Of a stretch of 64,000 nt of DNA, positions 3,410-30,491 are shown one piece after another; the stretch's first letter is position 1; every line of letters begins with the position of its first letter. The DNA is taken from positions 53,434 to 117,433 of the forward strand of contig CAJJPX010000001.1 of assembly GCA_905193755.1 (NCBI GenBank), given 5' to 3'. The position numbers and the translations under genes were made by a program. The notes beneath the pieces are model-generated. The model ran no database searches. It saw only the letters and a list, made by a program, of their open reading frames with translations, and was not told the DNA's origin. This DNA is from an uncultured Clostridium sp. (GTDB taxonomy: Bacteria > Bacillota_I > Bacilli_A > RF39 > UBA660).

Positions 3410-3754
3410 TTATTTATTATTTTCTTCTTCATGTAACTTTTCAATAATTTTTTCAATTTTTTGTCCATACTCTATAGATTCATCAAATATAAATCTAAGT
3501 TCTGGAGTATGTCTAATTTGTAATCTCTCAGCAAGTAAACTTCTAAAGAATCCTGCTGCATTATTTAAGTCTTTTTCTACTTTTTCTCTATCATCTGTAG
3601 TTGTAAAATATATTTTAGCAAAGCTTAAATCATTTGTTACATCACAATCAGTAATAGTTACATGCTTAAAGTCTTCATCTTTAGCTTCAAGAAGTAAAAT
3701 ATTACCAAGTTCTTTTTGCATTTCAGAAGCTACTCTCTCACCCTTTAAACTCAT
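3410..3754 (-). CDS. rbfA: Ribosome-binding factor A
   Basis: 114 aa. It sits after infB with a 4-nt overlap, and the sequence is typical of RbfA. Confidence 0.88.
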   Translation of the reverse strand: MSLKGERVASEMQKELGNILLLEAKDEDFKHVTITDCDVTNDLSFAKIYFTTTDDREKVEKDLNNAAGFFRSLLAERLQIRHTPELRFIFDESIEYGQKIEKIIEKLHEEENNK

Positions 3755-5874
3755 ATTCTCTTCACTTCCCTATTCTCAAATGCTTCAATAACATCTCCCT
3801 CTTTAATATCAGGGAATGATTCTATAGTCATACCACAATCATATCCAGATTTAACTTCATGAGCTTGATCTTTTTCTCTTTGAAGAGTAGCAATCTTAGA
3901 TGTAGCTATTACTATACCATCACGAATAATTCTACAAGGAGTTCCAACTTTAACAACTCCACTTGTTACATGAGAACCGGCTATATTTCCAACCTTAGAG
4001 AAATGGAATAATTGCCTTACTTCAGCTTCTCCAATAACTACTTCTTCATATTCAGGATCAAGCATACCTTTCATAGCAGCTTCTATTTCTTCTACTAATT
4101 TATAAATAATATTATAAAGTCTAATTTCAATACCATAATTTTTAGCAGTTTCTTTAGTAGCTTTAGAAGGACTAACATTAAATCCTATAATAATTGCATT
4201 AGATGCATTAGCAAGTACAACATCACTTTCAGTAATAGTACCTACACCACTTCTAATAACATTAATTTTAACACCATCTACATGTATCTTTAATAAAGCA
4301 TTCTTAACAGCTTCTTCGCTACCCTTAACATCAGTCTTAAGAACAATATTTATTTCTTTACGTCCTTCTTTAATTTGATCGAATAGTTCATCTAAACTTA
4401 ATGCTTTATGAGCAAATCTCTTACTCTTTTCATGTTCTTTTCTCTTTATAGCAACACTACGAGCTTCTTTTTCACCTTCAAATGCCATAAATTTATCTCC
4501 AGCAACTGGAACGTCTTCTAGTCCAGTAACTTCAACTGGTTTACTAGGTTCAGCACTTACTATTTCACGTCCAGTATCATCCTTTAATGTACGAACTTTA
4601 CCATAGCTTGTACCAACAACAATAGGATCTCCAAGTCTTAAAGTACCATTTTGTATTAATAATGTTACAACTGGTCCAATATTCTTATCAAGTCTAGCTT
4701 CTATAACAGAACCACTAGCATATCTGTTAGGATTTGCTTTTAAATCTAATAATTCACTTAAAGCATTAATATTATCTAAAAGTAAATCTACACCTTCACC
4801 AGTTTGAGCACTCATACGAACGAATATTGTGTCTCCTCCCCATTCTTCAGGAACAAGATTAAGTTCACTCATATCACTCATTATCTTATCTATATTAGTA
4901 TGTGGTTTATCAATTTTATTAATTGCAACTATAATTGGTACCCCTGCTGCTTTAGCATGATCAATTGCTTCTCTTGTTTGAGGCATAACTCCATCATCAG
5001 CAGCTACTATAATAATTACTATATCAGTAACACTAGCTCCTCTTGCTCTCATTTCAGTAAATGCAGCATGTCCTGGAGTATCTATAAATGTAATCTTACG
5101 ACCATTTCTTTCTACTTGATATGCACCTATTGCTTGAGTAATACCACCAGCTTCACCTTGAGCTACATGTGAATTACGAATATAATCAAGTAATGTAGTC
5201 TTACCATGATCAACATGACCCATAATAGTTACAACTGCAGGTCTAGGAAGTAAATCTTCTTCTTTATCATTTATTACATATTCTTCAAAATTAGTAATAT
5301 CAGTAGTTTCTTCTTTAACTAATTCTTTATTATATTCAAGTACTACTACACTAGCATCATCAAAAGAAATAGCTTGATTTGAAGATATCATAAGTCCCAT
5401 ACCTATTAACTTCTTAACTACATCTGATGCACTAACACCAATCGCAGTAGCTAAATCTGATACACTCATACCTTCTTTATATAAAACTACGTTACTTTCA
5501 ACTTCTTCTTTATTACTTTGTAATTTTGATTTATTCTTATAAATATTTTTCTTCTTTTGTGATAAATCATCATTACTTTGTTTGTTATTATCTTTCTTCT
5601 TTATTTTTTCCTTAACCTTAACTTCTTCATCTAATTCTATGTTGTATGCAAGAGCAGCTTCTTCAGCTCTATCCTCTAATTCAAACTTACTTGCTAATTC
5701 CTCAGTAAGATTATTTTCTTCTGTTCCAGCACTAAGTTCATTATCCAACATAATTATAGCTTCATCATCTAGAATATCTGTTTCATTATTATATTTAAAG
5801 CCAAGTTCTTTAAGCTTACTAATAACAGTTTTAGTATCTACTCCTAATTCTAAAGCGTAATCTTTTATACTCAT
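3751..5874 (-). CDS. infB: Translation initiation factor IF-2
   Basis: 707 aa with the [17 protein letters not shown] and NKIDK G-domain motifs and the N-terminal IF2_N segment. Confidence 0.97.
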
Positions 5875-5897
5875 ATTTATTTCCTCCTTTTCTTTAA

Positions 5898-6155
5898 TTA
5901 TATTTTACTAATTAATTCATCATAAATATTATCTTCTATTTTAACCTCTAAATGACGTTCAAGTGCTTTTGATTTACGAGCTTTTTCTATTACTTCTTTA
6001 TCTTTTTTAACATAAGCTCCGCGTCCATTAGCTTTACCTGTCTCGTCTACAAATACATTTCCTTCATTGTCTCTAACTACACGAAGTAAATCTCTTTTTT
6101 CTAATTTTTCATGTGTTATTACACAAATTCTCATAGGGACCTTTTTAACTTTCAT
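5898..6155 (-). CDS. ylxR: YlxR/RnpM family RNA-binding protein (DUF448)
   Basis: 85 aa, conserved position between nusA and infB, with the GRGAYV motif. Confidence 0.8.
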   Translation of the reverse strand: MKVKKVPMRICVITHEKLEKRDLLRVVRDNEGNVFVDETGKANGRGAYVKKDKEVIEKARKSKALERHLEVKIEDNIYDELISKI

Positions 6156-6174
6156 ACGTTTTCCCTCCTTATGA

Positions 6175-7317
6175 TTATTTATTTATTTCAGCATTTATAT
6201 CTGCTAAAGTCTTAATATTAATTGTATATTTAGTAAGTCTACTAGCTAATTTAATATTAATTCCTTTCTTACCAATTGCTAAACTTAAATTTTCATCATC
6301 AGCTATTACTAATGCTTCTTTTTTCTTTTCATCAGTAATACTTACGTTTAAGTTTTTAGCTGGACTTAATGCATTAGCAATAAATTCTTCCATATTATCA
6401 GAATAAGCTATTAAATCTACTTTTTCACCACCAAGTTCATTTATTATATTAGCAATTCTTCTTCCTTTTTCACCAATACAACTTCCAATTGGATCTACTT
6501 TTGGATTAGTTGAAGCAACAGCCACTTTACTTCTTACACCAGCTTCACGAGCAACTCCACGAAGTTCTAATGTTCCATCACTAAATTCAGGAATTTCATG
6601 TTCAAATAATCTTTTAACAAATCCATAGTTCTTTCTTGATGTCAAGATAAGTGGTCCCTTAGGTGTACTTTCTATTTTAGTAATATATACTTTTATAGAG
6701 TCTCCCATAGTTAATTTTTCACCTGGAATTAATTCAGTTTTAGGAAGTATACCACGTGCTTTACCTAAATCAACATAATAGTTTCTTGCATCTTCCATAG
6801 CAAGGAATCCTATCATTAACTCATCTTCTTTATCAGCGAAATCAGCCATAACTTTTTCACGTTCAGCTTCACGAATCTTTTGAAGAACTACTTGTTTAGC
6901 AACTGAAATAGCTACTCTACCAAAGTTTTTAGGAGTAACTTCTTCTAGTATTTCATCGCCTACTTGATAGTCACTATTTATTTCTTTAGCTTCGCTAATA
7001 GTCATTTCATTTAAGTAATCATGACTTACTTTAACTTCTCCAGTTTCTGGGTCTATATCATCATCATCATCTTTGTAATCATCTACTATAGTAGTAACTT
7101 TAAATACTTTAATTTCTCCAGTATTTCTATCTATTAATACACGACTATTATAATCAGCTTTTTCATTTTTCTTATATGCAGTACTTAAAGCAGTTTGCAT
7201 AGCTTCAATAACTACATCTTCATCTATTCCTTTTTCTTTTACTATAAACTCTAATGCTTTTTTAAATTCTTGAGCACTTGCTACTGCTGCATCTTCTTCT
7301 TTAACTTTCTTACTCAT
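6175..7317 (-). CDS. nusA: Transcription termination/antitermination factor NusA
   Basis: NusA N-domain, S1 and KH domains (FKKALEFIVKEKGI...). The likely start is MSKK at 7315-7317, after an AAGGAG RBS. The ORF-track extension to 7344 is probably not translated. Confidence 0.92.
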   Translation of the reverse strand: MSKKVKEEDAAVASAQEFKKALEFIVKEKGIDEDVVIEAMQTALSTAYKKNEKADYNSRVLIDRNTGEIKVFKVTTIVDDYKDDDDDIDPETGEVKVSHDYLNEMTISEAKEINSDYQVGDEILEEVTPKNFGRVAISVAKQVVLQKIREAEREKVMADFADKEDELMIGFLAMEDARNYYVDLGKARGILPKTELIPGEKLTMGDSIKVYITKIESTPKGPLILTSRKNYGFVKRLFEHEIPEFSDGTLELRGVAREAGVRSKVAVASTNPKVDPIGSCIGEKGRRIANIINELGGEKVDLIAYSDNMEEFIANALSPAKNLNVSITDEKKKEALVIADDENLSLAIGKKGINIKLASRLTKYTINIKTLADINAEINK

Positions 7318-7567
7318 TTTCATCTTCTCCTTTGCTTCCAACATCTAGTACATAATTTTCTAAATCTAAGTCTAGACTATCAATAATTGGATCAACTATT
7401 TTTGTAGCTTTAACACATAAATTTGTGTCTACTGGTTCACCATTAAAGTTTTCAATAGTTACAAATAATGTATTTTCACCATCTTCTTCTCCAAAGTGAA
7501 CACCTACTAATTTAATATTTTCTTTCTCAAGTGGTTCCCTAACAGCATCATAAATCTTCTCTTCCAT
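7310..7567 (-). CDS. rimP: Ribosome maturation factor RimP, short 85-aa form (N-terminal domain only)
   Basis: MEEKIYDAVREPLEKENIKLVGVHF...YVLDVGS aligns to the RimP N-domain up to the L-E-V-S-S-P-G region, then a stop. It overlaps the nusA start. RBS AAGGAGG. Confidence 0.7.
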   Translation of the reverse strand: MEEKIYDAVREPLEKENIKLVGVHFGEEDGENTLFVTIENFNGEPVDTNLCVKATKIVDPIIDSLDLDLENYVLDVGSKGEDENE

Positions 7568-7596
7568 AAGACCTCCTTATCATATCAATATAAAGA

Positions 7597-7620
7597 GTGG
7601 GTTTTAGGCCCACTCTTCGT
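7597..7620 (-). terminator. GC-rich hairpin between the camelysin-LRR gene and rimP
   Basis: AGAGTGGG-(loop)-CCCACTCT 8-bp stem. On the minus strand it is followed by a weak T-run. Confidence 0.4.
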
Positions 7621-7677
7621 TGTCAAATGTATTATAACATATTAAATTGTATGTATCAAGAATTATTTTATGATTAA

Positions 7678-8958
7678 CTACTTTTTAGTAAAGTATCCAG
7701 GTAAATCGGTTCCACCATCTATTCTAGCGTATGTTTTATCAACATAAGAACTATTATATTTAGTACCATTTCCACCAACTAAATTAGTTGCTTCCTCAAA
7801 CATACCTGTACTACTAGTAACATTAGCAGTTATGAAATTATTACTTGCATATATAGTTTTTACTTTAGAATTATAAAACATAGCATACATGTTAATTACA
7901 TTACTCGTATCAAAACTACTTAAATCAAGTGTAGTGAACAAAGTATTTCTAAACATACTCCACATTTGTATTACTTTTGAGGTGTCTAGTCCTTCTAAGT
8001 TAATACTAGTAGCATTTGAATGATAAAATAAACCACTCATATCAGTCACATTTGAAGTATCAAGATTACTTAAATCTAAAGTACTTGCCTGAGAATAGCC
8101 AAACATACCAGATATACTTATAACATTAGAAGTATTCAATCTAGATAAATCTATATTACTAGCTTGACTTAATGCAAACATTCCTCCCATGTATATAACA
8201 GGTACATCATTAATATATGTACATACATCTTTAGTACTAACGTCTTCAGTAGATAATGGATTTGTTAAGGCAACTCCCCAACCAAGATCATCCATGTTTT
8301 TCCAATTAACAGTAAGTGTTGATGTATTAGCATCACTTTTTTCCTGCATATATCTATACGTATATATTCCATTTACATACTCAACACCTTGCGTTACTTC
8401 TCCATCAAAAGTGCAATTAACAACTTCAGGAGCATTCTCCACTCCTAAGACTCCACCAAACTTCTTTCCCTGATTATAATTCTGATCAGCACCTGTATCT
8501 TTAAAAGTAATAGTTAAATCATATTTATGCATTATATTTGGTTCAATAGAAATACTTTTTTTAATCTTTAGACTATTAATTGGAGTACTTACTATATTTT
8601 CACAAGTTCCATCTACTTCTTCAGTTGTGCCATTTATTCTAGTACAAGTTCCTTCAATTAACATTTCATCATTAATAATTTCATTTGTTAATTCTTGCCA
8701 TATAATATTATATTCAACATCTAAAGAACCGGTATTTTTAACAGTTATTGTTTTATTTATTGTATTTCCTGGTTTAATATTTTGTACATTTATCTCTGGT
8801 CCATCGGTATATGTAAGTTGTAATGTACCAGTTTCTACTACTTGATCTTTTACTTCATTTTGTACTATCGAATTACTAAAGTATGCATATGAAAATCCTA
8901 CACTAGCTAGGAATATAAATGCTAAAGTTATTCCAAATATTATTTTTTTATCTTTCAT
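7678..8958 (-). CDS. TasA/camelysin-like N-domain fused to BspA-type leucine-rich repeats; secreted
   Basis: The true start is MKDKKIIFGITLAFIFLASVGFSYAYF at 8956-8958 (RBS AGGTGATGA). The N-domain resembles TasA/M73 (TGTLQLTYTDG...NTGSLDVEYNIIW). The C-terminal half has repeated ~22-aa DLSxLDTSNVTxMxxMF units typical of BspA/Treponema-type LRR_5. Confidence 0.65.
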   Translation of the reverse strand: MKDKKIIFGITLAFIFLASVGFSYAYFSNSIVQNEVKDQVVETGTLQLTYTDGPEINVQNIKPGNTINKTITVKNTGSLDVEYNIIWQELTNEIINDEMLIEGTCTRINGTTEEVDGTCENIVSTPINSLKIKKSISIEPNIMHKYDLTITFKDTGADQNYNQGKKFGGVLGVENAPEVVNCTFDGEVTQGVEYVNGIYTYRYMQEKSDANTSTLTVNWKNMDDLGWGVALTNPLSTEDVSTKDVCTYINDVPVIYMGGMFALSQASNIDLSRLNTSNVISISGMFGYSQASTLDLSNLDTSNVTDMSGLFYHSNATSINLEGLDTSKVIQMWSMFRNTLFTTLDLSSFDTSNVINMYAMFYNSKVKTIYASNNFITANVTSSTGMFEEATNLVGGNGTKYNSSYVDKTYARIDGGTDLPGYFTKK

Positions 8959-8973
8959 ATCATCACCTATTTT

Positions 8974-9002
8974 ATTATAAAACGTACCCCCACCCCAGTC
9001 AA
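8974..9002 (-). promoter_or_regulatory. Sigma-A-type promoter for the camelysin-LRR gene
   Basis: Minus strand TTGACT (8997-9002), 17-nt G-rich spacer, TATAAT (8974-8979). Confidence 0.55.
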
Positions 9003-9100
9003 GCAAAAAGATGTTCGTACGTGACTCAATCAAAAATTCATTTAGCATTTATTTTATATAAAAAAAGAAGCTACTTTTTAAATAACTTCAATTTAATGTA

Positions 9101-10237
9101 TTATGAATAAGCAACAGCATATATAAATCCACAACTTTTTTTATTACCACTTTTTGGACTTGAACATCGTTTACTATAATCTTTATATTTACTATAAACT
9201 TGTTCTATAGTATAAGTTCCATTATTATTCTTATTAGCCGGGTCATGAACAACTACATTAGTTCCATTACCACCTAGTGCTATATAGTGCCCTGGTATTA
9301 AAAGTACAACTAGTTTTCCTTGATTCAACGCATTTGTTATAAGAGATGATTCTTTTTGATGAGTTGCAGAACTCTCATCATTATCATTCCTACCAAATAG
9401 TTTTTGAATCGTAACTCCATATTTTGAAGCAACTCTTTGATCAACAAGTGCAGCATCTGTTATAGCTCCACCACCAGTATTATTAGATATTTTTTGTCCA
9501 TAAACATAATCATGTACAGTTGATGGAGTTATATTACTATCTCTCTTTAAACCACTAAGTACCATCGCAAGTGATGTATAACCACAACCTGCATGACATA
9601 AGTCAGTTCCCATATATTTCTTTTCACTCCATCTAGAATCACATTGAGCATAATAAGGAAAATCAGTACTAGATGTACCACTAGTATCATAACTGCTTCC
9701 CCCACCAGTACCATCAGTACCAGCATACTTACTACTTTCTTCAGCAGCCTTTAATTCTTCTTGTATAATTTCATACATCGCATCAAGCCTATCCATATAT
9801 TCTTTTTTTACATCTTTATCTTTTATCTTTGAAGCAGCAGCAACAGCAGCATAATAATCAGTTAAACTCATATTCTCATCAGCCCTTGCTAATAAACTCT
9901 CAGTTTGTTTCAAATATGCATTATCAATATTTTCAGGAGTAGCACTATTCAAACAATCAATATAATTATTTTCTTCAGTACTTGAAACCTTTACTATAAC
10001 ATTAACAAGAGTTGGAACTAAAAACACACATATTGCTGCTATACACATATTTACTAAAGATTTCTTAGATTTCGTAAGTAAATCTTCATCTCCCACCTTT
10101 ATAGCTTTCATAAATGCTAACATTCCAGAAACTATAAGAATTATAGGAACAACAATTTTAATAATTAATATTATTGTATTAATAACACTAAATAATTCTA
10201 ATATTTCACCATTATCACAAATACCCAAAATATACAT
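9101..10237 (-). CDS. Membrane protein: pilin-like 2-TM N-module fused to a C39-like (papain-fold) cysteine peptidase domain
   Basis: The N-terminal ~90 aa (ICDNGEILELFSVINTIILIIKIVVPIILIVSGMLAFMKAIKVGDEDLLTKSKKSLVNMCIAAICVFLVPTLVNVIV) is paralogous to the N-termini of 60514-61614 and 62307-63356. The C-terminus has a Peptidase_C39_2-like pattern (YYAQCDSRWS...CHAGCGYTSLAMVLSG...VVLLIPGHYIALGG...VVHDP). RBS GGTGGTGA. Confidence 0.6.
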   Translation of the reverse strand: MYILGICDNGEILELFSVINTIILIIKIVVPIILIVSGMLAFMKAIKVGDEDLLTKSKKSLVNMCIAAICVFLVPTLVNVIVKVSSTEENNYIDCLNSATPENIDNAYLKQTESLLARADENMSLTDYYAAVAAASKIKDKDVKKEYMDRLDAMYEIIQEELKAAEESSKYAGTDGTGGGSSYDTSGTSSTDFPYYAQCDSRWSEKKYMGTDLCHAGCGYTSLAMVLSGLKRDSNITPSTVHDYVYGQKISNNTGGGAITDAALVDQRVASKYGVTIQKLFGRNDNDESSATHQKESSLITNALNQGKLVVLLIPGHYIALGGNGTNVVVHDPANKNNNGTYTIEQVYSKYKDYSKRCSSPKSGNKKSCGFIYAVAYS

Positions 10238-10347
10238 AAGTTCACCACCATTATTAATTAAATTATAACAAAATATAACAAAATTTAAAATGTTTTATTG
10301 AAATTATAAAATGTTTTTGTTAGTATAAATAATCAAAGAGGTAACAA

Positions 10348-12216
10348 ATGACTAATTATGATTTATATGAAAGTGTCAACGATGAAACAAAAAAATATCT
10401 AGATATGGTATTTTCTTTATTAAGATATTTTAATGAGAATGGAGATAATATTGAAGATGATGAAATATTACCTTTTTCATTCTTCTTAGCTGGTCTTAAA
10501 ACTGATGAATTTGTGAAAGATACTTTTGAAAGATTTGGAATTACTTTTGATAATTGTTTTCACTATTTAGAAGATGAAAAAGTTCCTTTTGAACTTAGAA
10601 GTGCTCTTGAAACTGAAGAATTTACTACATACAATTTAGAAGATATTTATAGAATAATATTATCAGAAATTAAAAACGATTATTATTTAGAAGATAAAGA
10701 TATTAAATATTCAGATCTTGAACCATATCAATTATTTGATTATATGTTGACTATGTATAATGAAAAAGTATCTAACTTATTAAGAGATACTAATGATATA
10801 GATGATTTTACTGATACTAGTGATTTCTTTGAATACACTACTTATAGAGAAGACAAATTTATAGAGTTTGCTCATAAATTCGGAGTAGACATTGAAGAAC
10901 TTGCTCATAGTGAAAGTATCAAAGAATATCATAGTGATAGATTTAATATCATATATGATGATGGAAGAATGTATTTATTTTCAAACAATGGTAAAAAGCA
11001 AGATATAGCTACATATCAATTTGAAGATGGTATTATTACTCTAGGAAGAAACACTGAAATAATTAAGATAAATGATAAATTAATTACTAGAAAGAATTTT
11101 GAAGAATTATTAAGTATATTACAGGAAAGTAAAAAACCTATTAAATTTACCACTTATGATATAGATAAAAAATGTGAAAAATCATTTAAAGTATTAAGAG
11201 AAGAATTATTTGGAAGTGATAAAATGGAAGATGTAACAGAGAAATATAAAGACAATAAAGAAGTTATTTATAGTATGGATAGTAAAACACCTAATCTTGA
11301 TAAATATGGAAAAGATTTAACAAATATGTCTTATATAAAAGACCCCTCTATTGGAAGAAAAAATGAATTAGATAGAATTATGAAAATACTTTTATATCCT
11401 GAAAGAGATAAATCTATTATTATAACTGGTGTAGCTGGTTGTGGTAAAACTGCTTTAGTAAGAGGTCTTGCTTATAGAATTAAAAATGGTGATGTACCTG
11501 CTCCTTTAAAGAATTTAAGAATAATAAGTATAGATACTGCTACTATGGTAGCTGGTACTAAATATGTAGGAACTCTAGAAGAAAAAATGAAAAGGATTCT
11601 AGAAGAAGCAAGTGAAGACAAAAATATAATTTTATTTATAGATGAAATACACCAAGCTATATCTGGTGGTAAAAGTGAAGGAAATGATAATACAGTAGCT
11701 GAAATACTAAAACCATATTTAGATTATGGAAGTGTAAGAGTTATAGGTGCTACAACTGAAGAAGAATATGCTGAACATATAGAAAGTAACACTGCATTTA
11801 AAACAAGATTTAAAAAAGTTGCAATAAAAGAACCAGATTATAACACAACTTATCAAGTACTAGATGATCTAATTAACGCATATAACAAAATTAGTTATTC
11901 TAAACTTAACGTAAGTGACACTGAAAGACACATGATTATAGATTGGTTAATTAATTCAACAAATGCAAGTTTTAGAGATTATAGAGATAGAGCAAGTAAT
12001 CCAAGATTAGTATTAGATATATTAAAAGAAGCATATGCTATTGCAGCATTTAACGAAAGTGAAGATGTAACTATAGATCATATAATTGAAGCATTAAAAA
12101 ATGAAGATAGACTTTACGAAAGTTCTAGAGAAAGACAAGCACAAATCTTAAAAAATATGAAACCAAAACCAAGAAGTGAATGTAAAATATTAGAATTCAA
12201 ACCTAGAGCTAAATAA
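10348..12216 (+). CDS. Clp-family AAA+ ATPase with a single D1-type module and an unusual ~330-aa N-terminal region
   Basis: The C-terminal half matches ClpA/B/C D1: DPSIGRKNELDRI, Walker A GVAGCGKT, Walker B ILFIDEIH, sensor IGATT, ...AFKTRFKKVAIKEP. There is no D2 module. The N-terminus has possible degenerate Clp_N-like repeats. Confidence 0.7.
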   Translation: MTNYDLYESVNDETKKYLDMVFSLLRYFNENGDNIEDDEILPFSFFLAGLKTDEFVKDTFERFGITFDNCFHYLEDEKVPFELRSALETEEFTTYNLEDIYRIILSEIKNDYYLEDKDIKYSDLEPYQLFDYMLTMYNEKVSNLLRDTNDIDDFTDTSDFFEYTTYREDKFIEFAHKFGVDIEELAHSESIKEYHSDRFNIIYDDGRMYLFSNNGKKQDIATYQFEDGIITLGRNTEIIKINDKLITRKNFEELLSILQESKKPIKFTTYDIDKKCEKSFKVLREELFGSDKMEDVTEKYKDNKEVIYSMDSKTPNLDKYGKDLTNMSYIKDPSIGRKNELDRIMKILLYPERDKSIIITGVAGCGKTALVRGLAYRIKNGDVPAPLKNLRIISIDTATMVAGTKYVGTLEEKMKRILEEASEDKNIILFIDEIHQAISGGKSEGNDNTVAEILKPYLDYGSVRVIGATTEEEYAEHIESNTAFKTRFKKVAIKEPDYNTTYQVLDDLINAYNKISYSKLNVSDTERHMIIDWLINSTNASFRDYRDRASNPRLVLDILKEAYAIAAFNESEDVTIDHIIEALKNEDRLYESSRERQAQILKNMKPKPRSECKILEFKPRAK

Positions 12217-12228
12217 TAGCTCTTTTAT
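12205..12228 (+). terminator. Intrinsic terminator of the AAA+ gene
   Basis: AGAGCTA-AATAA-TAGCTCT hairpin with the stop codon in the loop, followed by TTTT. Confidence 0.6.
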
Positions 12229-12229
12229 A

Positions 12230-12257
12230 TTGACATAAAACATATATATGATACAAT
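12230..12257 (+). promoter_or_regulatory. Extended -10 sigma-A promoter for the Y-family polymerase gene
   Basis: TTGACA (12230-12235), 16-nt spacer, TGaTACAAT (-10 at 12252-12257). Confidence 0.55.
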
Positions 12258-12277
12258 TATTACGAAAAGGTGTTTGT

Positions 12278-13519
12278 ATGAAAGAAAAAGTAATAATGAG
12301 TATAGATTTAAAAAGCTTCTTTGCTTCTTGTGAATGTGTTAGTCGTGGGCTTGATCCATTCACTACTCCCTTAGTGGTCGCAGACATTTCACGTGGACAG
12401 GGTGCTATGACTTTAGCGGTCACTCCATATTTAAGAAGTAAAGGAGTAGATTCTAGAAGTAGAGTTTTTGAATTACCTAAGAATATTAAAATTATATTTG
12501 CTAAACCAAGAATGAAATTATATGAAACTTATAGTAATAAAGTAAGAGAAATATTTAAGAGTTTTATAAGTGAAGAAGATATACACATCTACTCTATTGA
12601 TGAAGTATTTATGGATGTAACAGACTATTTAAAATATTACAAAATGACTGACATAGAACTTGCTAAAACAATAATGAAAACCATTAAAGATAAAACAGGT
12701 CTTACTTCTACTTGTGGTATCGGACCAAATATATTCTTATCTAAAGTTGCTATGGACATAGAAGCAAAACATAATAAAGAATTTATTGCTAAATGGACCT
12801 ATAATGATATAGAAACAAAACTACAGAATTTAGAACCTTTAAGCTCTGTCTGGGGAATTGGAAAAAGAACTGAAAAGAAACTGAACAATCTTGGGATTAA
12901 AAAAATAAAAGATATAAACAACTACACAAGAGATTTCTATATAAAAAGATTTGGTAATGTAGCTGGTAATGATATATGGTGTAAAGCAAATGGAATAGAT
13001 TTTACTACTATAAAAGATTTAAATGAGCGTGAGAGAGAAAAATCTATAAGTATGAGTCAAATATTATATAGAGACTACACTGTAGATGAAGCAATACTAA
13101 TCGTAAAAGAAATGAATGACATGCTTAGTAATAAACTTAGAAGAATGAATAAAACCACTAAACTAGTATATTTAGGTATTAACTATTCAAGAGATTTATG
13201 TAAAAGATTTAAAGAAACAATTCTCTTAAATGAAAGTGAAGACATACCTGAAAGAATATATGAAGTTCTACAATACATCTATTATAAAAATGTAGAGAAT
13301 CTACCAATTAGAAAAGTAACAATAGCGTATTCTAGACTAAATGACAAAAGATGCACACAACTAAGTCTATTTGAAAACAACATAATTGAAACAGACGAAT
13401 ATCATAAAGCAATAGACAAAATAACTGAAAGGTTTGGAGGAACATCTATACTAAGAGCATCCTCTTTACTTAAAAATTCAACAATAAAAAATAGAGAAAA
13501 ATTTAAAAATATAATTTAA
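12278..13519 (+). CDS. Y-family (DinB/UmuC-type) translesion DNA polymerase
   Basis: SIDLKSFFASCE (catalytic Asp), IYSIDEVFMDVT, and STCGIGPNIFLSKVAMD...KHNKEFIAKW (GIG...K motifs). The likely start is MKEKVIM after an AAAGGTG RBS. Confidence 0.8.
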   Translation: MKEKVIMSIDLKSFFASCECVSRGLDPFTTPLVVADISRGQGAMTLAVTPYLRSKGVDSRSRVFELPKNIKIIFAKPRMKLYETYSNKVREIFKSFISEEDIHIYSIDEVFMDVTDYLKYYKMTDIELAKTIMKTIKDKTGLTSTCGIGPNIFLSKVAMDIEAKHNKEFIAKWTYNDIETKLQNLEPLSSVWGIGKRTEKKLNNLGIKKIKDINNYTRDFYIKRFGNVAGNDIWCKANGIDFTTIKDLNEREREKSISMSQILYRDYTVDEAILIVKEMNDMLSNKLRRMNKTTKLVYLGINYSRDLCKRFKETILLNESEDIPERIYEVLQYIYYKNVENLPIRKVTIAYSRLNDKRCTQLSLFENNIIETDEYHKAIDKITERFGGTSILRASSLLKNSTIKNREKFKNII

Positions 13520-14535
13520 ATTCTTCTCTTTTTAACATTATCTCTATAATAAGGCATTAAACCAATCTTATTCTTAGAAAACATTGGTAATTGAGCAAAT
13601 ATATAATCATCCCATAAATTAGCATTTATTAAATATACTTTTTTATCTGATATTACAAAATTCCATTCTATCTCAAGTGATTCATCAAATTCCTTAGCAC
13701 ATTCTTTAGCAATCTTTTTAATTTCTTCATAAAAAGGTATTTCTAAATTAACAAGCTTAACTTTACTAATTGGATGTTCATTATAAAGTTCATCTTCTCC
13801 ATATACAAGTTTATGTTTTATTACCCCACTCTTCACATCAACTAAACCAGTTAAATGCTTAACGGAATTAACATCATACTTATATTCTTTTTCAATACCA
13901 AATTTTACATAAGAAGAAACTATATCTACTTTATTACCACATAAAAGCGTAACAATACTAACAGTATTCATATTATATGGATTGATACTATCAAATAATT
14001 TATTTTGTTTTATACTTGGTTCAACAATATTTAAATTGTTTTTCTTAGCTTTATCAAGCAAAAATGCAGGACTTCTAAAATCTTTAACATTCAGTACTAA
14101 TGTATTACTTTCTCCTTTAAGATTATTACTTCTACAAGTAAGCTCTTTCTTTTTAAGCGCTAACTCTTCAAATTCTTTAAAACTAAGTTCTTTAATATTA
14201 TAGTATTCTCTATTCAAGCAATCATTAAATTTAATATAAAATTTAATTCTATTATTTAAAATAACTAAATGCTTAACATCACATAAATAATTTTCTAAGT
14301 TTTGATGTCTACACTTACTCATATAAGTATCTCTTTTAAAACCAGGTAATAAATAAAACTCAAATATTCTATATTCATCGTAGTCAACACCATATCTTAC
14401 ATAACTCCACCACATATCAAAAAACAATACTATTGAACTTTTATTGCATTTCTTTTTAATAAGATTGATACTACGATTAATACCCTTAATATTCTTTTTT
14501 AAATAATTTAAAAATTTATTTAACTCATTCTTCAT
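13516..14535 (-). CDS. ATP-grasp protein, TupA-like (sugar-transfer-associated ATP-grasp)
   Basis: N-terminal DMWWSYVRYGVDYDEYRIFEFY pattern characteristic of ATPgrasp_TupA, ~340 aa. Assigned by recalled motif only. Confidence 0.5.
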   Translation of the reverse strand: MKNELNKFLNYLKKNIKGINRSINLIKKKCNKSSIVLFFDMWWSYVRYGVDYDEYRIFEFYLLPGFKRDTYMSKCRHQNLENYLCDVKHLVILNNRIKFYIKFNDCLNREYYNIKELSFKEFEELALKKKELTCRSNNLKGESNTLVLNVKDFRSPAFLLDKAKKNNLNIVEPSIKQNKLFDSINPYNMNTVSIVTLLCGNKVDIVSSYVKFGIEKEYKYDVNSVKHLTGLVDVKSGVIKHKLVYGEDELYNEHPISKVKLVNLEIPFYEEIKKIAKECAKEFDESLEIEWNFVISDKKVYLINANLWDDYIFAQLPMFSKNKIGLMPYYRDNVKKRRI

Positions 14536-14660
14536 AATATCCCACTCGTGTTTATACCATAATTATATATTTTTTTTATTAAAATGGCAAGTTACTCGCT
14601 TGACTACAATAATTTGATACATTATAATAATATTTAAATCACATTTTAGGGGGATACATA

Positions 14661-16157
14661 ATGGAAAAAGAAGTTTTAGTATTTATATACAAAAGAAAAA
14701 GAGTTAAAGCAAACGATGAAGTTGAAAGTTATACATATGAACCATCAGAAATACTTCATGGAAAAGAAATAAATTATGATGGAAATAGAATATTTATGGA
14801 TGATTCAGAAAAATTTAATTATCCATTCATAGATGATATATATAATTTTGATGAAGAATATGTTTATGCATTTCCAGCATACTTAGAAAATTTATCAGAA
14901 GGACAAAAAGACAAACTAAAAAAAACATTAAAACGCGAAATAGAAGATTATGATAAACACTTATTATTCCAGTTATATACTCCAGGTGAAGCATCAGTTG
15001 AAACATTCGCATCAGATGATGGATTAGAAACTCAAATAAGCATAAATCCAGATAGTTATGAAGGCTTCGAAGAAATGGTTAATAGCGATTATACTAAAGA
15101 AGTTAAAAGACTTAAAGAAGAAATATCAATCACAGAAAAAGAATTAGACAAAAAACAAAAAACAAAAGTTCCTACCATAATAGTACCTAAAGTAATATAC
15201 GCAGATGAACTATACAAATCAGTAAGTAAAACAGTAATATGTCAAGATGAACAAATTAAAAAAATAGCTACTTCAGTAGCAAAAAATCAAAGATTACAAG
15301 ATACCAGTTTGAAATCAAACATGCTAGTATGTGGACCTACTGGTGTTGGTAAAACAGAAATATTTAGAACAATAAGTAAAAAGACAAATCTACCTATAAC
15401 CATAGAAGACTCAACAGAATATACAGCAGCAAGCTATAAAGGTAAAGATGTAAGCGAAATGCTACTTCATTTATACGAAAACTCAGGTAAAGATATAGAA
15501 AGAGCACAAAGAGGAATTGTAGTAGTAGATGAAATAGATAAAAAAGTATCTAAAGGAGATCATGCTACATTCACATCAGCTGTCATACAATCATTACTTA
15601 AAATGATGGAAGGACATAAATATCAATTAATATCACCAGATGACAAAGAAATAATAATATTTGATACATCAAAACTAACATTTGCATTCTTAGGAGCATT
15701 CTCAGGAATAGAAGAATATTCAAGAACTAAAAGAGGTATTGGATTTACTACTCCTAAAGATGAATCACAAGATAACAAAGAAATATTCAATAATGAAACA
15801 CTTAAGAAATTTGGATTACTCCCAGAATTCGTTGGTAGAAATGATAATATAGTAGTTATGAATAGTCTAGATACTAATGAATACATGAGAATCATAAAAG
15901 AATCAGATAAAAGTCAATTATTACTATATAAAAAGTTCTTTGAATCTATTGGAATAGACTTTAAATACGATGAAAAAACTATAGAAGAAATAGCTATAGA
16001 AGCTAAAAAACTAGGTATAGGTGCAAGAGGTATTAAAAGAATAGTAGAAAATGCTTTAGAAGTAGCAAACTACTATGCTTTGTCAGAAGGTCAACATAGA
16101 GAACTAATCATAAGTCCAGAAACAATACATGATAGTAAACAATACATACTAAAGTAA
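14661..16157 (+). CDS. ClpX-paralogous AAA+ unfoldase with a novel ~200-aa N-domain replacing the zinc-binding domain
   Basis: Walker A GPTGVGKT and Walker B GIVVVDEIDK. The pore and IGF loop region is LTFAFLGAFSGIEEY...RGIGFTTP, followed by LLPEFVGR and a GARGIKRIVENAL sensor II. RBS AGGGGGA. Confidence 0.8.
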   Translation: MEKEVLVFIYKRKRVKANDEVESYTYEPSEILHGKEINYDGNRIFMDDSEKFNYPFIDDIYNFDEEYVYAFPAYLENLSEGQKDKLKKTLKREIEDYDKHLLFQLYTPGEASVETFASDDGLETQISINPDSYEGFEEMVNSDYTKEVKRLKEEISITEKELDKKQKTKVPTIIVPKVIYADELYKSVSKTVICQDEQIKKIATSVAKNQRLQDTSLKSNMLVCGPTGVGKTEIFRTISKKTNLPITIEDSTEYTAASYKGKDVSEMLLHLYENSGKDIERAQRGIVVVDEIDKKVSKGDHATFTSAVIQSLLKMMEGHKYQLISPDDKEIIIFDTSKLTFAFLGAFSGIEEYSRTKRGIGFTTPKDESQDNKEIFNNETLKKFGLLPEFVGRNDNIVVMNSLDTNEYMRIIKESDKSQLLLYKKFFESIGIDFKYDEKTIEEIAIEAKKLGIGARGIKRIVENALEVANYYALSEGQHRELIISPETIHDSKQYILK

Positions 16158-16943
16158 TAAATCATTAATACTAACAATATTATATCCTCTACTCTTTATA
16201 TAATTTAAAGTCGCAGATAATTCATTTAAATTAAATTCATTTTCCTTGATAAATATGATAACACCTTTATCAAGGATTTTTTTTGTATTAATTAATAAAT
16301 CTTTATCAATATAATTAATAACATTTATACTACTTAATTTTTTATTTTTACATACCTCTATAATATCTCCATCTTTATTAGTACAATAAAATTCATCATG
16401 AAGTATCTTCATAAAATTATTAACATCCTCTTTATTCTTTCCTTTAAATAAAACATTACTATAATTACTTATATTATCTATATTAGAATTTAACATTTCA
16501 TAATTAAAAAGTAAATTCAAAGTATATCCCTTATTATCAGCTATTTTCATCATTTTTAAGAAGTTTTTACCATCATTTACATCTATTACTATACTAATAT
16601 TATTTAAATAGTTATTTCCTTTAATAATATACTTATCTAAATTATTACTTTTAGAAAGAATACACTCTTCATCATTATACTCTATCAACTCTTTTTTAAA
16701 CCCAATACCCTTCATATTAGAATAACTCTTGTTCTTATTAACACTAAGACCACTAAGTCCTAAAATTATACCATCAGAAGTAATTTCACCTTCTCTACAC
16801 TTATAATCATTATTAGATGCATATTCCACTATACTATTCATTATCACATTATTATGTTCACTCATAGTAATAATCTTATCAGTATAATAAAAACTAAATA
16901 AAACAAACATAGAAACTAATATATATTTATAATACTTTTTCAT
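16149..16943 (-). CDS. Hypothetical N-terminally membrane-anchored, N/K-rich protein
   Basis: 264-aa ORF with a TM helix near the N-terminus. I find no convincing family motif; a polysaccharide-deacetylase-like fold cannot be supported. Confidence 0.5.
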   Translation of the reverse strand: MKKYYKYILVSMFVLFSFYYTDKIITMSEHNNVIMNSIVEYASNNDYKCREGEITSDGIILGLSGLSVNKNKSYSNMKGIGFKKELIEYNDEECILSKSNNLDKYIIKGNNYLNNISIVIDVNDGKNFLKMMKIADNKGYTLNLLFNYEMLNSNIDNISNYSNVLFKGKNKEDVNNFMKILHDEFYCTNKDGDIIEVCKNKKLSSINVINYIDKDLLINTKKILDKGVIIFIKENEFNLNELSATLNYIKSRGYNIVSINDLLL

Positions 16944-16971
16944 AATAAATTATATATATAAAAAGAAAGAT

Positions 16972-18405
16972 TTATGATAAATCTTTCTTAATAAGAGCAA
17001 GAGCTCTAGTAGTTTTAACTTTATCTTCCCATTCTTTCTTTGGATTACCTTTTCTATCAATAAGTATTCTTACTCTATCTTTATTCTGAAGTATATAATC
17101 ATCTGCTACTTTTCTATCATTTACTATAGCTTGAGCCATACGACTAGCATTCATAGGATCAAGTCTATAAGCAAAATCTATAGGAGTAGAACCAACTGGT
17201 AGTTGAAGTACTTTCCCTTCAGTAGTATAAACATACACATTACCACTAAATAATTCTTTTTTAACTTGTTCCACAAATGATCTATTATCTTCATATTGCT
17301 CATTTATTTCAACTAAAGATTTAAAGAATTGACTTTTTTCTTCAACTGCTTCTAACATTCTCTTACTAGCATTTTCACCGTCAATATCCCAATAAGAAGC
17401 TACACCATAACTATCTATTTTATCCATTTCTATTGTTCTTATTTGAGCTTGTACAAGCATATTATTAGGTCCAAACATAGTAGTATGTAAACATTGATAC
17501 ATATTAGTTTTAGGATTACATATATAATCTTTAAATTTACCATTAATTGGTTTATATAAACTATGTATATATCCAAGAGAAGTATAACAATCACTCACTT
17601 CATCAACTATAACTTTAAGAGCAAATAAATCATGAATATTCTTAATATCTTGACCATCATACCTCTTTTTATAAATACCATATATATTTCTTATTCTTAA
17701 TTTTATTTCATTAGGAATATCATTTCTATTAAGTAAAATACTTATTTTATAAGCCATATCTTCAAGAATATTTTTACTACTTAATAGTAACTGATTAGCT
17801 TCATCACTTACTCTTTTATATTCATCCGGAAGTAAATACTTAAGCGATAAATCCTCTAATTCACATTTAAGTTGATAGACACCTAAGTTATATGCTAATG
17901 GAACAAATATTTCCATTGTTTCCATAGATATTTCTTTTTGTTTGTAATCTTTTTTATATTCAAGCGTTCTCATATTATGAAGTCTATCAGCTAGTTTTAT
18001 TAATATAACTCTAGCATCTTTAGTAACACTTGTTATTATTTTTCTTGTATTAGCATAATTTCTATCTTGTTTATTTGAAAAACTCATTTTAGATAGCTTA
18101 GTAACACCATCAACTAATTCTGCTACTGTAGGATTAAATAACCCTGCAATATCTTCTTTTTCTATATTAGTATCTTCTATAGTATCATGAAGTAATGCAG
18201 CACATAAAGTATCTTTGTCAGCTTTCATCTCTGATAAAATGTACGCCACAGTTATCGGGTGAGTAATATATTCTTCTCCACTTTCACGTACTTGACCACT
18301 ATGTAATTCTTTAGCATATTGATACGCTCTTAAAACATCAGGTATAATCATAGGATTATATTTTTCAATAGAATCTATTAATTCTTCTATAGTAGTACTT
18401 TTCAT
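16972..18405 (-). CDS. rel: Bifunctional (p)ppGpp synthetase/hydrolase Rel, short form with HD + synthetase + TGS and no ACT/zinc-finger C-terminus
   Basis: HD motif HSGQV...LLHDTIEDT, synthetase motifs (IYGIYKKRY; YQCLHTTMFGPNNMLVQAQIRTIEMDKIDSYGVASYW), and TGS (VYVYTTEGKVLQLPVGSTPIDFAY). It ends at 477 aa. Confidence 0.85.
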   Translation of the reverse strand: MKSTTIEELIDSIEKYNPMIIPDVLRAYQYAKELHSGQVRESGEEYITHPITVAYILSEMKADKDTLCAALLHDTIEDTNIEKEDIAGLFNPTVAELVDGVTKLSKMSFSNKQDRNYANTRKIITSVTKDARVILIKLADRLHNMRTLEYKKDYKQKEISMETMEIFVPLAYNLGVYQLKCELEDLSLKYLLPDEYKRVSDEANQLLLSSKNILEDMAYKISILLNRNDIPNEIKLRIRNIYGIYKKRYDGQDIKNIHDLFALKVIVDEVSDCYTSLGYIHSLYKPINGKFKDYICNPKTNMYQCLHTTMFGPNNMLVQAQIRTIEMDKIDSYGVASYWDIDGENASKRMLEAVEEKSQFFKSLVEINEQYEDNRSFVEQVKKELFSGNVYVYTTEGKVLQLPVGSTPIDFAYRLDPMNASRMAQAIVNDRKVADDYILQNKDRVRILIDRKGNPKKEWEDKVKTTRALALIKKDLS

Positions 18406-18597
18406 AACTCACCTCCATAAATAAAAAGTGACAACCAAAAAGTCATCACTTATAAGCATAAAGAAATATTGTTAGTCACACATCTAACATAATTATTAGA
18501 TTTAATTATACAGCAACATAAATACTTCTCCATAAACTACCTCAAATATAAATTTAATAATCATATTAAAGGTTTTTTATCTAAAAGTCAACACTTT

Positions 18598-19713
18598 TTA
18601 TAAATTAAATCTCTTTTTTAATGCTAAAGTATTTTCTTTTATTTTAGGAGTTGCTATTTTACCTTCTACATATTCATCAAAATTTATACCTAAACCTTCT
18701 ATTTCTTGTCTTGGTGTAGCTTCTCCCCTAGACATAACAAAATTATAAAAGTCTTTCATAAACTCTTTATAATTTCCATCTGCTAATTTATGCATACAAA
18801 ACGCTGTATAATATCCAAGACCATATAATAATTCATCTCTTAATTCAACCTTCGTTCCACTATCTAATAGAACATTACCTTCCAAATCAATATTTGTAGT
18901 TTGTCCATCAGCTTTTTCTTTCATAAGACTATGTATAGGAAAGAAACTATCACTTATCTTAAGAGCTAAATCATTAATTTGTATTCTTGCTCCATCAACA
19001 TCAATTTTATTTCTAAGTAAATAATCATATAATCCTAGCTCAAAAAACGCAGATGGAACTTCCAAAAATGCATCATTAAATAATGGCATTCTTTTATTCT
19101 GAGGAAACATGAATAATTCAGTATCTAACGCATGTCCAAGTTCATGAGCTATAACACTTTGAGTATTCGTATCGAATTTTTGATAAGATGTTATTATATA
19201 TCCAGACTTAATTATAGAACTACTAATATATAACCCATCAAAACCATCAAGCTCTATTCCAGTCTGTATTCTACCTTCATCAAAATATCTTTTTACTATT
19301 CTATATTCTTTATTACCGAATGTTGAAAAATAGCCAAGTAAGATATCTTTAAATTCTTTCTCAGAATATCTTCTAAAACATGATGAGAATGGAACATCTA
19401 CACACTCCATTTTTTCTAACTCATCACAATAATTATCAAAAAGTGTATACCAAGTATATAAGTATTCATCTAAATAATCACAAAATCTATCACAATTTCT
19501 ATATGCTTTAGAATCTATAAATTTTTGTACTCTATCTGGTCTTAAAAATAAATTTTCATCTTCTACTTCTATACCAGTAATTGATTCATATAAGCCAGTC
19601 AAATCTAAAAAACTAGCATAATCTTCTCTTAATGAATCTTTAGATGGATTCCTCATATAATATTTTTTTAATTTTTTTAAATCTTCACATAAACGATTTC
19701 TATCTATTTTCAT
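18598..19713 (-). CDS. HEXXH zinc metallopeptidase-like protein (paralogue of 24515-25558)
   Basis: IAHELGHAL motif. The likely start is MKIDRNR after a GGGGGAA RBS, so the ORF-track N-terminal extension is rejected. Confidence 0.55.
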   Translation of the reverse strand: MKIDRNRLCEDLKKLKKYYMRNPSKDSLREDYASFLDLTGLYESITGIEVEDENLFLRPDRVQKFIDSKAYRNCDRFCDYLDEYLYTWYTLFDNYCDELEKMECVDVPFSSCFRRYSEKEFKDILLGYFSTFGNKEYRIVKRYFDEGRIQTGIELDGFDGLYISSSIIKSGYIITSYQKFDTNTQSVIAHELGHALDTELFMFPQNKRMPLFNDAFLEVPSAFFELGLYDYLLRNKIDVDGARIQINDLALKISDSFFPIHSLMKEKADGQTTNIDLEGNVLLDSGTKVELRDELLYGLGYYTAFCMHKLADGNYKEFMKDFYNFVMSRGEATPRQEIEGLGINFDEYVEGKIATPKIKENTLALKKRFNL

Positions 19714-19811
19714 AAGTTCCCCCAGTATCATATATATATACATCATATCATATAATTATTTTTTATACACAAAAAAAACCAAAGTTTTAAAATTTTCTTT
19801 GGTTTAATTAT

Positions 19812-27697: not shown

Positions 27698-28315
27698 CTA
27701 TTTAAGAAATTTATATTTACCAATTATAGGTAAATCCTTAGACTTACCATTGCTTGTCCTATATAAACCAACTATAGTAATTACAATAGCAAGGCAATAT
27801 AATACGTATGTTATAAAGCTAACCCATCCAGGAGTTTCTTCACTCATCAAATATTTCTTAGTAAATAAAGTATATAAAACTCTAGAAATAACTATAGCAA
27901 ATATCCATAAAAGTGTTAAATTAGTACCCTCTTTAATATGATATTGCATATATTTAGATTTAGCATCTAATTTTTTAAAGAATTTAAAATATAATGCTAC
28001 AAGAGGTATATAACAAAGAGTCGCAAAATTCTTATATTGTTTTACTTCATTAGTACCAAAATAACTTGTATAATCAGTTGTATTTATTAATTTATTGACA
28101 GTGTTAATGGTTTTATCACTAAAATCATCTTGTGGTTTAGTAGTAGTGTCATCATTTAAAACACCTTTGCTTTCAGCAATATCATTAGAAAACTCTATCA
28201 TTTCCATAGAATTATTATTTGCTTGTGTATTATTTACAGGTGCTGTTTGATTAGTAGCCTGCATTGTTGGTTCATTTGTTTGTGGAGTTTGATTAGTATT
28301 TTGATTAGTATTCAT
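27698..28315 (-). CDS. Membrane protein with an N/Q/T-rich low-complexity N-terminus
   Basis: 205 aa with 3-4 predicted TM helices in the C-terminal half. Confidence 0.5.
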   Translation of the reverse strand: MNTNQNTNQTPQTNEPTMQATNQTAPVNNTQANNNSMEMIEFSNDIAESKGVLNDDTTTKPQDDFSDKTINTVNKLINTTDYTSYFGTNEVKQYKNFATLCYIPLVALYFKFFKKLDAKSKYMQYHIKEGTNLTLLWIFAIVISRVLYTLFTKKYLMSEETPGWVSFITYVLYCLAIVITIVGLYRTSNGKSKDLPIIGKYKFLK

Positions 28316-28455
28316 ATTAATTACCTTCCATTCTTATTAGATTATATCATATTTTTATAAAGAAAATAAATAATTATTTAACTATTATCAAGAACAAGTT
28401 TCTTGTAAATATATAATGAGTGATGTACAATATTATTTAAAGTGAGTGTGGTTAC

Positions 28456-30476: not shown

Positions 30477-30491
30477 TTTAAAGGAGAAAAA

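Follow-up and report, generated by a model that had tools for sequence, protein, structure and literature searches.

The zinc-binding domain (ZBD), the RKH loop and the pore-2 loop are treated as family-specific specificity elements of the AAA+ unfoldase ClpX, and swapping of N-terminal domains is a familiar theme among AAA+ unfoldases. Recognition of ssrA tags requires R228 and H230 in the RKH loop, T199 and V202 in the pore-2 loop and Y153 and V154 in the pore-1 loop (PMC9035409). Human ClpX is blind to ssrA, which has been attributed to changes in these loops, yet it docks ClpP through its IGF loops (PMC9035409); ClpP is the sole partner known for the IGF motif (PMC7547079, PMC9035409), and the pore-2 loop also touches the N-terminal loops of ClpP (PMC7547079). 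Here we analyse a ClpX-like gene in a 64,000-nucleotide stretch of DNA from an uncultured Clostridium sp. (assembly GCA_905193755.1, contig CAJJPX010000001.1, positions 53,434 to 117,433 of the forward strand; hereafter the window, in whose numbering its features are given). We think it reasonably likely that the product is an active, hexamer-forming ClpX-family unfoldase that feeds non-canonical clients to ClpP. Literature searches found no description of this ClpX-like family.

A ClpX-type AAA+ module with an intact motor

The gene and its catalytic elements, with motif conservation counted over 123 family members and with dN/dS denoting the ratio of non-synonymous to synonymous substitution rates, are as follows.

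14661 to 16157, plus strand: complete open reading frame (ORF) of a ClpX-like AAA+ unfoldase, 498 amino acids (aa) plus stop, from the ORF listing
15201 to 16154, plus strand: ClpX-type AAA+ module with large and small subdomains, aa 181-498, from Pfam, PDB and Foldseek; dN/dS 0.08
15333 to 15356, plus strand: Walker A GPTGVGKT, aa 225-232; GPTGxGK[TS] in nearly all 123 members
15516 to 15542, plus strand: Walker B IVVVDEIDK, aa 286-294; DEIDK (290-294) conserved in the family
15825 to 15839, plus strand: EFVGR with the arginine finger R393, equivalent to E. coli EFIGR (R307); EF[LVI]GR in 112 of 123
16020 to 16028, plus strand: GAR with sensor-2 R456, equivalent to E. coli GAR (R370); GAR in 112 of 123

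An earlier note on this DNA, made from the sequence alone, had placed the ORF exactly here, and the gene is real; the identical protein occurs on at least 21 metagenome or genome contigs. Beyond reasonable doubt, the C-terminal two thirds of the protein are a ClpX-type AAA+ module, as matches in Pfam, NCBIfam, the PDB and Foldseek agree. Pfam assigns AAA_2 to residues 218-396 and ClpB_D2-small to 419-478, and the top NCBIfam models are the two ClpX equivalogs (ClpX expectation value (E) 2.5e-58), both of whose cutoffs are missed (NF003745, 197.9 bits versus 359; TIGR00382, 170.3 versus 370.75). A phmmer search of PDB sequences returned ClpX chains at E 5e-44 to 1e-36 over residues ~190-492 only, followed by weaker matches to HslU (~1e-20) and to the D2 ring of ClpC and ClpB (~1e-8). 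The HslU model TIGR00390 is matched only in part (74.6 bits versus a cutoff of 362). Membership of ClpA, ClpB, ClpC or ClpE does not fit either, as the protein has a single AAA+ module, no Clp_N and D2-only matches (E 1e-8 to 1e-14) that score far short of those models' cutoffs. Foldseek aligned a full-length AlphaFold model, built from 25 family members, with the ClpX subunits of ClpXP cryo-EM complexes at template-modelling (TM) scores of 0.76-0.86 and a root-mean-square deviation of ~3.2 Å.

The motifs listed by the earlier note are all present (GPTGVGKT at 225-232, DEIDK at 290-294, RGIGFTTP with IGF at 360-362, LLPEFVGR at 386-393 and GARGIKRI at 454-461). Walker A, Walker B, R393 and R456 are conserved among the 123 members and the module has a dN/dS of 0.08, which therefore points to a functional ATPase.

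A conserved tripeptide for probable ClpP docking

15714 to 15776, plus strand: ClpP-docking-type loop, aa 352-372, with I360-G361-F362 at 15738-15746

In both HMMER and MAFFT alignments, I360-G361-F362 falls on I268-G269-F270 of E. coli ClpX. In the model the tripeptide lies within an unstructured segment (residues 358-368; predicted local distance difference test score (pLDDT) below 50) between two large-subdomain helices. The Phi-G-F pattern is close to invariant across the family, with G in 100%, F in 99% and I, L, M or V at the first position in 117 of 123 members, and the flanking residues are conserved at only 20-40%. Such an island of constraint within a variable loop is strong indirect evidence for a docking partner. 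The earlier note had stated that the IGF loop is kept and had made its place in a structural model a test of that view; the loop indeed sits at the right position and is under strong selection. The note went on to read ClpP docking from this retention. The retention stands; docking itself is better put as the most reasonable inference, because the IGF is retained, its loop position is correct and selection on it is strong.

Loss of the loops that define canonical specificity

For comparison we aligned the protein by MAFFT with E. coli ClpX and the ClpX of four other phyla (loci L001, L002, L018 and L036). Three elements stood out.

15426 to 15443, plus strand: pore-1 loop AASYKG (canonical ClpX EAGYVG), from alignment with canonical ClpX
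15543 to 15584, plus strand: shortened pore-2 region (KVSKGDHATFTSAV), without the canonical SITRDVSGEGVQQ, from comparison with the five canonical ClpX
15612 to 15653, plus strand: site of the RKH-loop deletion (GHKYQLISPDDKEI; canonical GT..VPPQGGRKHPQQE), with 5-7 residues deleted

The canonical proteins carry a near-invariant pore-1 TEAGYVGEDVEN, pore-2 SITRDVSGEGVQQALLK and RKH loop PPQGGRKHPQQE, the RKH and pore-2 loops being invariant among the five, and all have a CxxC...CxxC zinc ribbon (CSFCG...CDEC). Relative to them, the pore-2 region of the window protein is 4-6 residues shorter and lacks RDVSGEGVQQ. These losses extend to the family: GGRKHP is absent from every member examined and pore-2 is truncated in all of them. 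Where ClpX has GYVG in pore-1, the window protein has SYKG in a loop of low pLDDT in the full-length model; the family varies among SYK, GYV, SFK, SFQ, GYK and SLQG, and 23 of 123 members retain GYV. The earlier description of a ClpX match "motif for motif", pore region included, was thus overstated: it is right for the core motifs and wrong for pore-1, for the short pore-2 and for the deleted RKH loop.

Published structures and mutagenesis tie the reading of ssrA to RKH, pore-2 and pore-1, and on that ground the protein has kept the motor and the docking loop but none of the features by which canonical ClpX specificity is defined. On four counts tested it falls outside the ClpX equivalog, yet it would work like a ClpX.

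Another non-canonical ClpX came to light at locus L074 (~10001-10786; Lachnospiraceae bacterium 62-26). This 472-aa protein is extended by a long stretch at its N terminus, its zinc motif has degenerated (CFVCRRPE) and GANSKNAM stands in place of the RKH loop; it keeps the IGF and most of pore-2.

An N-terminal domain exclusive to this architecture

14661 to 15056, plus strand: novel N-terminal domain core, aa 1-132, acidic, cysteine-free, beta-rich alpha/beta; AlphaFold2 pLDDT 88.5
15057 to 15200, plus strand: charged helical linker, aa 133-180, of varying length and sequence; indel-rich in the alignment, dN/dS 0.54

The canonical zinc-binding domain is missing: PF06689 has no Pfam match in the window protein, and residues 1-180 contain no cysteine and hence no zinc ribbon. 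In its place stands an acidic core (residues 1-132, isoelectric point 4.47) that an AlphaFold model built on a domain alignment folds with confidence (pLDDT 88.5, predicted TM score 0.75) into a long N-terminal beta-hairpin, more strands and a 20-residue helix (residues ~1-132). The linker forms a helix at 143-168 in the domain-only model and a low-confidence tether in the full-length model.

An exhaustive phmmer search with residues 1-180 against 1.84 billion cluster representatives returned 15 proteins, all of them family members, fragments or chimeras, and no relative outside the ~500-aa family. A 50-sequence profile of the domain retrieved nothing from PDB sequences (best E 0.6), no member gave a consistent Pfam or PHROG match, and Foldseek matched the predicted structure to nothing in the PDB or BFVD. 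Short proteins that match the N-domain only were rejected as standalone domain proteins, being contig-edge fragments or chimeras, and a phage origin of the domain was likewise rejected, with no match in PHROGs or BFVD. As far as could be tested, the domain is therefore novel, without detectable relatives and exclusive to this architecture. The earlier note had described an unrelated acidic domain of ~200 aa in place of the zinc N-domain; its acidity, the missing ZBD and the want of relatives hold, and its size comes down to ~130 aa plus a linker of ~50 aa.

Three remote ClpX-like proteins bear on the age of this arrangement. The N terminus of P0287 aligns with the first ~70 residues of the domain (hhalign probability 78%, E 2e-5), which is weak profile evidence, and the link to P0294 and P0286 is weaker still and unproven. 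Because all three come from other low-GC bacteria and unrelated neighbourhoods, the combination of N-domain and AAA+ module may be older than this lineage.

One further composite turned up on a 2.7-kb ENA contig. P0285 (491 aa) joins a ClpC-like Clp_N repeat to the C-terminal half of the N-domain and the AAA+ module; its Walker B is broken (DGLDK), and it is a chimera produced by assembly or else a recombinant that has decayed.

Rapid divergence under purifying selection

Percentage identity to the window protein is given below for loci L085, L094, L088, L090 and L092, in that order.

NusA: 97, 85, 86, 91, 91
SerRS: 95, 74, 71, 71, 89
ClpX-like protein, full length: 78, 56, 49, 39, 40
ClpX-like protein, AAA+ module: 87, 66, 64, 46, 49
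ClpX-like protein, N-domain: 62, 40, 25, 28, undetectable

Measured pairwise with the closest relative, dN/dS was 0.08 for the AAA+ module, 0.21 for the N-domain core and 0.54 for the linker, compared with 0.05 for NusA and 0.07 for SerRS; the gene's synonymous divergence (dS) of 0.85 is what the non-ribosomal genes around it typically show. The protein is thus functional and under purifying selection, and far less constrained than expected of a housekeeping ClpX. Divergence this much faster than that of syntenic housekeeping genes suits a specialised role better than a core one. Positive selection is not supported: pairwise dN/dS lies at 0.08-0.21 in the two folded domains, and only the linker reaches 0.54. 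An apparent within-species hypervariability (many singleton 90% clusters) arose because clustering had been incomplete; the median identity between pairs is 99% for the ClpX-like protein and 96% for the D1-type AAA+ protein described below.

Fast evolution could also be explained if the gene belonged to a mobile element or to a system for conflict or defence. The rapid divergence occurs inside a conserved backbone, there are weak PADLOC matches to the IetA and DolB ATPases, and a phage ClpX-like PHROG is matched. However, the PADLOC matches (IetA, DolB and mad8) cover the generic P-loop region only, at E 7e-8 or worse, and the neighbours have none, and on this PADLOC evidence we rejected the defence-system idea. 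Pairwise dN/dS stays below 0.25 in both folded domains, the N-domain matches no PHROG, and in every relative the gene keeps its chromosomal place, flanked by housekeeping genes; the locus has neither an integrase nor repeats, and its base composition does not shift. We regard a defence or mobile-element origin as highly improbable.

Synonymous divergence from L085, the closest relative, varies along the region. It is 0.22-0.32 for infB, nusA and an M73/DUF285 gene (3751-10237) and rises to 0.7-1.0 from a C39-peptidase gene onward (10348-19746); this jump near 9-10 kb could reflect codon-bias constraint or a recombination boundary.

A fixed locus in a reduced-genome lineage

14600 to 14628, plus strand: sigma-A type promoter TTGACT-17 nt-TATAAT, consensus match 11/12
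14648 to 14654, plus strand: Shine-Dalgarno sequence AGGGGGA, 6 nt 5' of the ATG, from sequence reading

Across six lineages the -35 TTGACT does not vary and the -10 hardly does, with the rest of the intergenic spacer divergent. A search for CtsR operators gave chance-level matches only, far from the ClpX-like gene, and no CtsR box. The gene has its own conserved, constitutive-looking promoter.

More than 120 full-length homologue clusters were found, of 480-540 aa and with identity down to ~37%. The few named carriers are metagenome-assembled genomes (MAGs) labelled 'Tenericutes / Mycoplasmatota / Bacilli bacterium', and the whole family comes from MAGs of closely related, Tenericutes-like Bacilli. 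Genomes of the lineage reach at least 1.29 Mb. The window, with a GC content of ~26%, carries spoVAC/AD, murT/gatD and vanY; its low GC and gene content fit the reduced-genome Bacilli orders (PMC10868615). The supplement of that paper does not tabulate clp genes.

All relatives examined share one gene frame, which reads, from left to right, rimP-nusA-ylxR-infB, a D1-type AAA+ gene (plus), a Y-family polymerase gene (plus), an ATP-grasp gene (minus), the ClpX-like gene (plus), a membrane-protein gene (minus), an M3-like peptidase gene (minus) and serS (minus). The neighbours that the earlier note had named, the D1-type AAA+, the Y-family polymerase and the ATP-grasp protein, are correctly identified by Pfam and NCBIfam, although the functional weight placed on them is weakened by mixed strands, separate promoters and synteny that is lineage-wide and includes rimP-nusA-infB and serS. 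The conserved neighbourhood is lineage-wide synteny, not an operon. The remote relative P0287 has an unrelated gene context. Locus L098, considered as a gene block that outlasts a change of flank, was rejected: with serS on its right and an organism no more distant than the others, it is ordinary synteny.

A rival reading is a ClpP-independent remodeller formed with the D1-type neighbour, in which the two genes would make a two-tier Clp machine and the N-domain would be the adaptor between rings. Encoded at 10348-12216 (plus), this neighbour is a 622-aa single-ring AAA+ protein with a ClpA/B/C D1-type module (TIGR02639, residues 167-572) and a KYVG pore loop, without a D2 ring or a Clp_N Pfam match and with an unassigned N-terminal region of ~300 aa. 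ClpX and the D2 ring of ClpA/B/C fall in one AAA+ clade. The D1-type gene lies 2.4 kb upstream on the same strand, shares contigs with the ClpX-like gene and precedes it in most relatives; the two diverge almost equally (D1 76/52/41/39/40% versus ClpX-like 78/56/49/39/39%). Yet that rate match is weak, as the poorly constrained proteins of the region all saturate at ~36-40% identity, and the two genes are kept apart by the unrelated polymerase gene and, on the opposite strand, the ATP-grasp gene, both of which have promoters of their own. Beside P0116 the locus has no D1 gene, remote relatives (P0287) have no D1 neighbour, and the invariance of Phi-G-F most simply means ClpP docking. We consider this two-tier remodeller very unlikely. 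Just as unlikely, in our judgement, is the variant in which the N-domain again joins the rings and a ClpX-like hexamer with ClpP-docking loops sits under the D1-only ring; two separate polypeptides evolving together would then rebuild a double-ring protease activator of the ClpC/ClpA kind, and the lineage would have given up its canonical Clp ATPases.

As the earlier note had said, the gene is not beside clpP: none lies in the window, at the related loci or within 10 kb past the window ends. More broadly, clpP, a second clpX, tig and lon are absent from the window, 15 related loci and 10 kb beyond each end (~84 kb), and tblastn searches of the window and those 15 loci with B. subtilis ClpP and E. 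coli ClpX as queries returned only the ClpX-like gene itself. In Firmicutes, ysxC/engB is normally preceded by clpX or lon; here, instead, nrnA and ackA come before the gene for this ribosome-biogenesis GTPase (48787-49389, minus; 213 bits versus a cutoff of 124).

These data raise the alternative that the gene is the lineage's only ClpX, a housekeeping orthologue that has left the tig-clpX-engB locus and been remodelled in a reduced genome, with ssrA control residing elsewhere. In mycoplasmas, ssrA-type quality control has been reported as handed to another protease. The same locus recurs in every relative examined, the promoter is conserved and constitutive-looking without a CtsR box, the window's ysxC/engB follows neither clpX nor lon and no second clpX appears in ~84 kb. 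Redundant paralogues would also be less expected in genomes this small (longest contigs 1.0-1.3 Mb). Small genome, fixed position and constitutive promoter are thus compatible with a remodelled sole ClpX. Against this stands the rate: from genome to genome the protein has diverged at 4-5 times the pace of NusA, SerRS or IF2, and its AAA+ module has a dN 2-4 times theirs, whereas a ClpX that is the only copy and of the essential type would not typically do so. The organism moreover retains sporulation genes, and sporulation in model Firmicutes depends on canonical ClpXP and ClpCP; the genomes sampled are carriers of the gene only. We hold a sole ClpX to be possible but rather unlikely. A specialised copy is favoured because of the fast rate and the lost canonical specificity loops, and we lean slightly towards its coexistence with a canonical ClpX in the same genomes, which the earlier note had presumed in calling the gene a paralogue.

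Several other features of the region deserve mention. The membrane protein of 264-265 aa (16149-16943, minus), with a weak YlxY/polysaccharide-deacetylase-like match, is convergent with the ClpX-like gene and its 3' end overlaps the stop codon of the latter by ~9 nt, an arrangement kept in all relatives examined. Two genes downstream lies a 477-aa RelA/SpoT homologue (16972-18405, minus) with HD, synthetase and TGS domains and no ACT/RIS; it is found in the closest relatives only, and also at L096 (16643-18772), and is a second, truncated copy because a full-length 709-aa RelA is encoded ~8 kb past the left window end. A 382-aa HELGH metallopeptidase (18598-19746, minus), distantly related to PepF/M3, diverges faster than any other gene of the region: close relatives share 28-49% identity, and dN/dS is 0.46. 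In L098 it is tandemly duplicated (12376-14855). The stretch at ~28000-32200 has the lowest GC of the window (21%) and holds a PcfJ-like protein (28456-29928), a 162-aa DnaA-ATPase fragment (29988-30476), two ORFs without a Pfam match and tRNA-Leu(CAA) (30995-31081); it may be an integrated element. A 316-aa ORF at 51858-52808 (plus) has a weak Cas_APE2256 (CARF-like) match, and no CRISPR array or other cas gene was noticed nearby.

A model for a re-targeted ClpX

The analysis shows the homology, the status of the motifs, the conservation of the docking loop, the novelty of the N-domain, the evolutionary rate, the promoter and the synteny; from these we infer hexamer formation, ClpP binding, a changed range of substrates and what the N-domain does. 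The model runs as follows. Expressed from its own constitutive promoter, the protein would assemble into a ClpX-like hexamer, dock ClpP through the conserved Phi-G-F loops and translocate substrates through a central pore lined by the aromatic pore-1 residue. The zinc-binding N-domain, which serves adaptor and substrate docking, has been lost along with the RKH loop and canonical pore-2, which read ssrA-type C-terminal degrons, and replaced by the ~130-aa acidic alpha/beta domain on its flexible, helical ~50-aa linker. This new domain would catch either an adaptor or clients that differ from those of ClpX and are probably few in kind, and would pass clients to the pore, to end in ClpP-dependent degradation. 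The loss of RKH and the remodelling of pore-2 and pore-1, which the earlier note had missed, further support an altered, N-domain-driven choice of substrate. The earlier proposal of an unfoldase with a new substrate-recognition domain is sound in its ClpX-derived ATPase and its replaced ZBD; the recognition role of the N-domain is the part that we put conditionally, and the note's word "adaptor-free" is speculation.

Four points weigh against the model. In the P0111 clade (L090/L091; 409 member sequences), GAS replaces the sensor-2 GAR and EFLRR replaces EF[LVI]GR, which suggests that the ATPase may be altered or decaying in part of the family. The shortened pore-2 could weaken coupling to ClpP. 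No clpP lies in the ~84 kb inspected, so that the presence of ClpP in these genomes is presumed. Finally, no substrate, adaptor or structural analogue hints at a ligand of the N-domain.

The family is a natural, conserved subfamily without ZBD, RKH loop or canonical pore-2, yet with the motor and the ClpP-docking loop tightly selected. If the model is correct, it would offer a compact natural case of a ClpXP-type protease re-targeted by an N-domain swap, together with a new ~130-aa recognition domain that has no structural match. It opens no long-standing question. It could help explain proteolysis in reduced-genome, uncultured relatives of Mycoplasmatales and Erysipelotrichales, and it bears on whether ssrA-tag clearance has been re-routed there as in mycoplasmas.

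Comparison with known systems

The closest described system is bacterial ClpX (TIGR00382 / PRK05342; E. coli PDB 6WRF/6PO1). Like it, the window protein has a single AAA+ module (TM ~0.8, ~31-34% identity), Walker A and B, the arginine finger, sensor-2, an aromatic pore-1 residue and an IGF loop of similar length at the same position. Unlike it, the protein lacks the C4 zinc-binding domain and carries the novel 130-aa acidic domain and linker instead; its RKH loop is deleted, its pore-2 short and its pore-1 SYKG, and it scores about half the equivalog cutoff. It also evolves faster than its housekeeping neighbours and is encoded away from tig, clpP, lon and engB.

Human mitochondrial CLPX (PDB 9DVY, 9YKX) resembles the window protein in its diverged RKH and pore-2 loops and matches it structurally. 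It is, in contrast, eukaryotic and retains the zinc-binding domain, and the window protein is closer to bacterial ClpX (E 1e-28 versus 1e-44). HslU (ClpY) is likewise a single-ring AAA+ protein of the HCLR clade, with a GYVG-type pore loop and partial matches at E ~1e-20, but it has an I-domain and docks HslV through its C terminus, and HslU sequences lack the IGF-loop segment.

The ZBD-less ClpX-like proteins P0286, P0287 and P0294, from metagenomes, differ in an AAA+ module only ~34-37% identical, in a GYVG or GYIG pore-1, in the DVSGRGV pore-2 kept by P0286 and in unrelated neighbourhoods (sortase/pilin, UvrD). They share with the window family a length of ~480-530 aa, the absence of PF06689, low-GC hosts and a retained Phi-G-F tripeptide.

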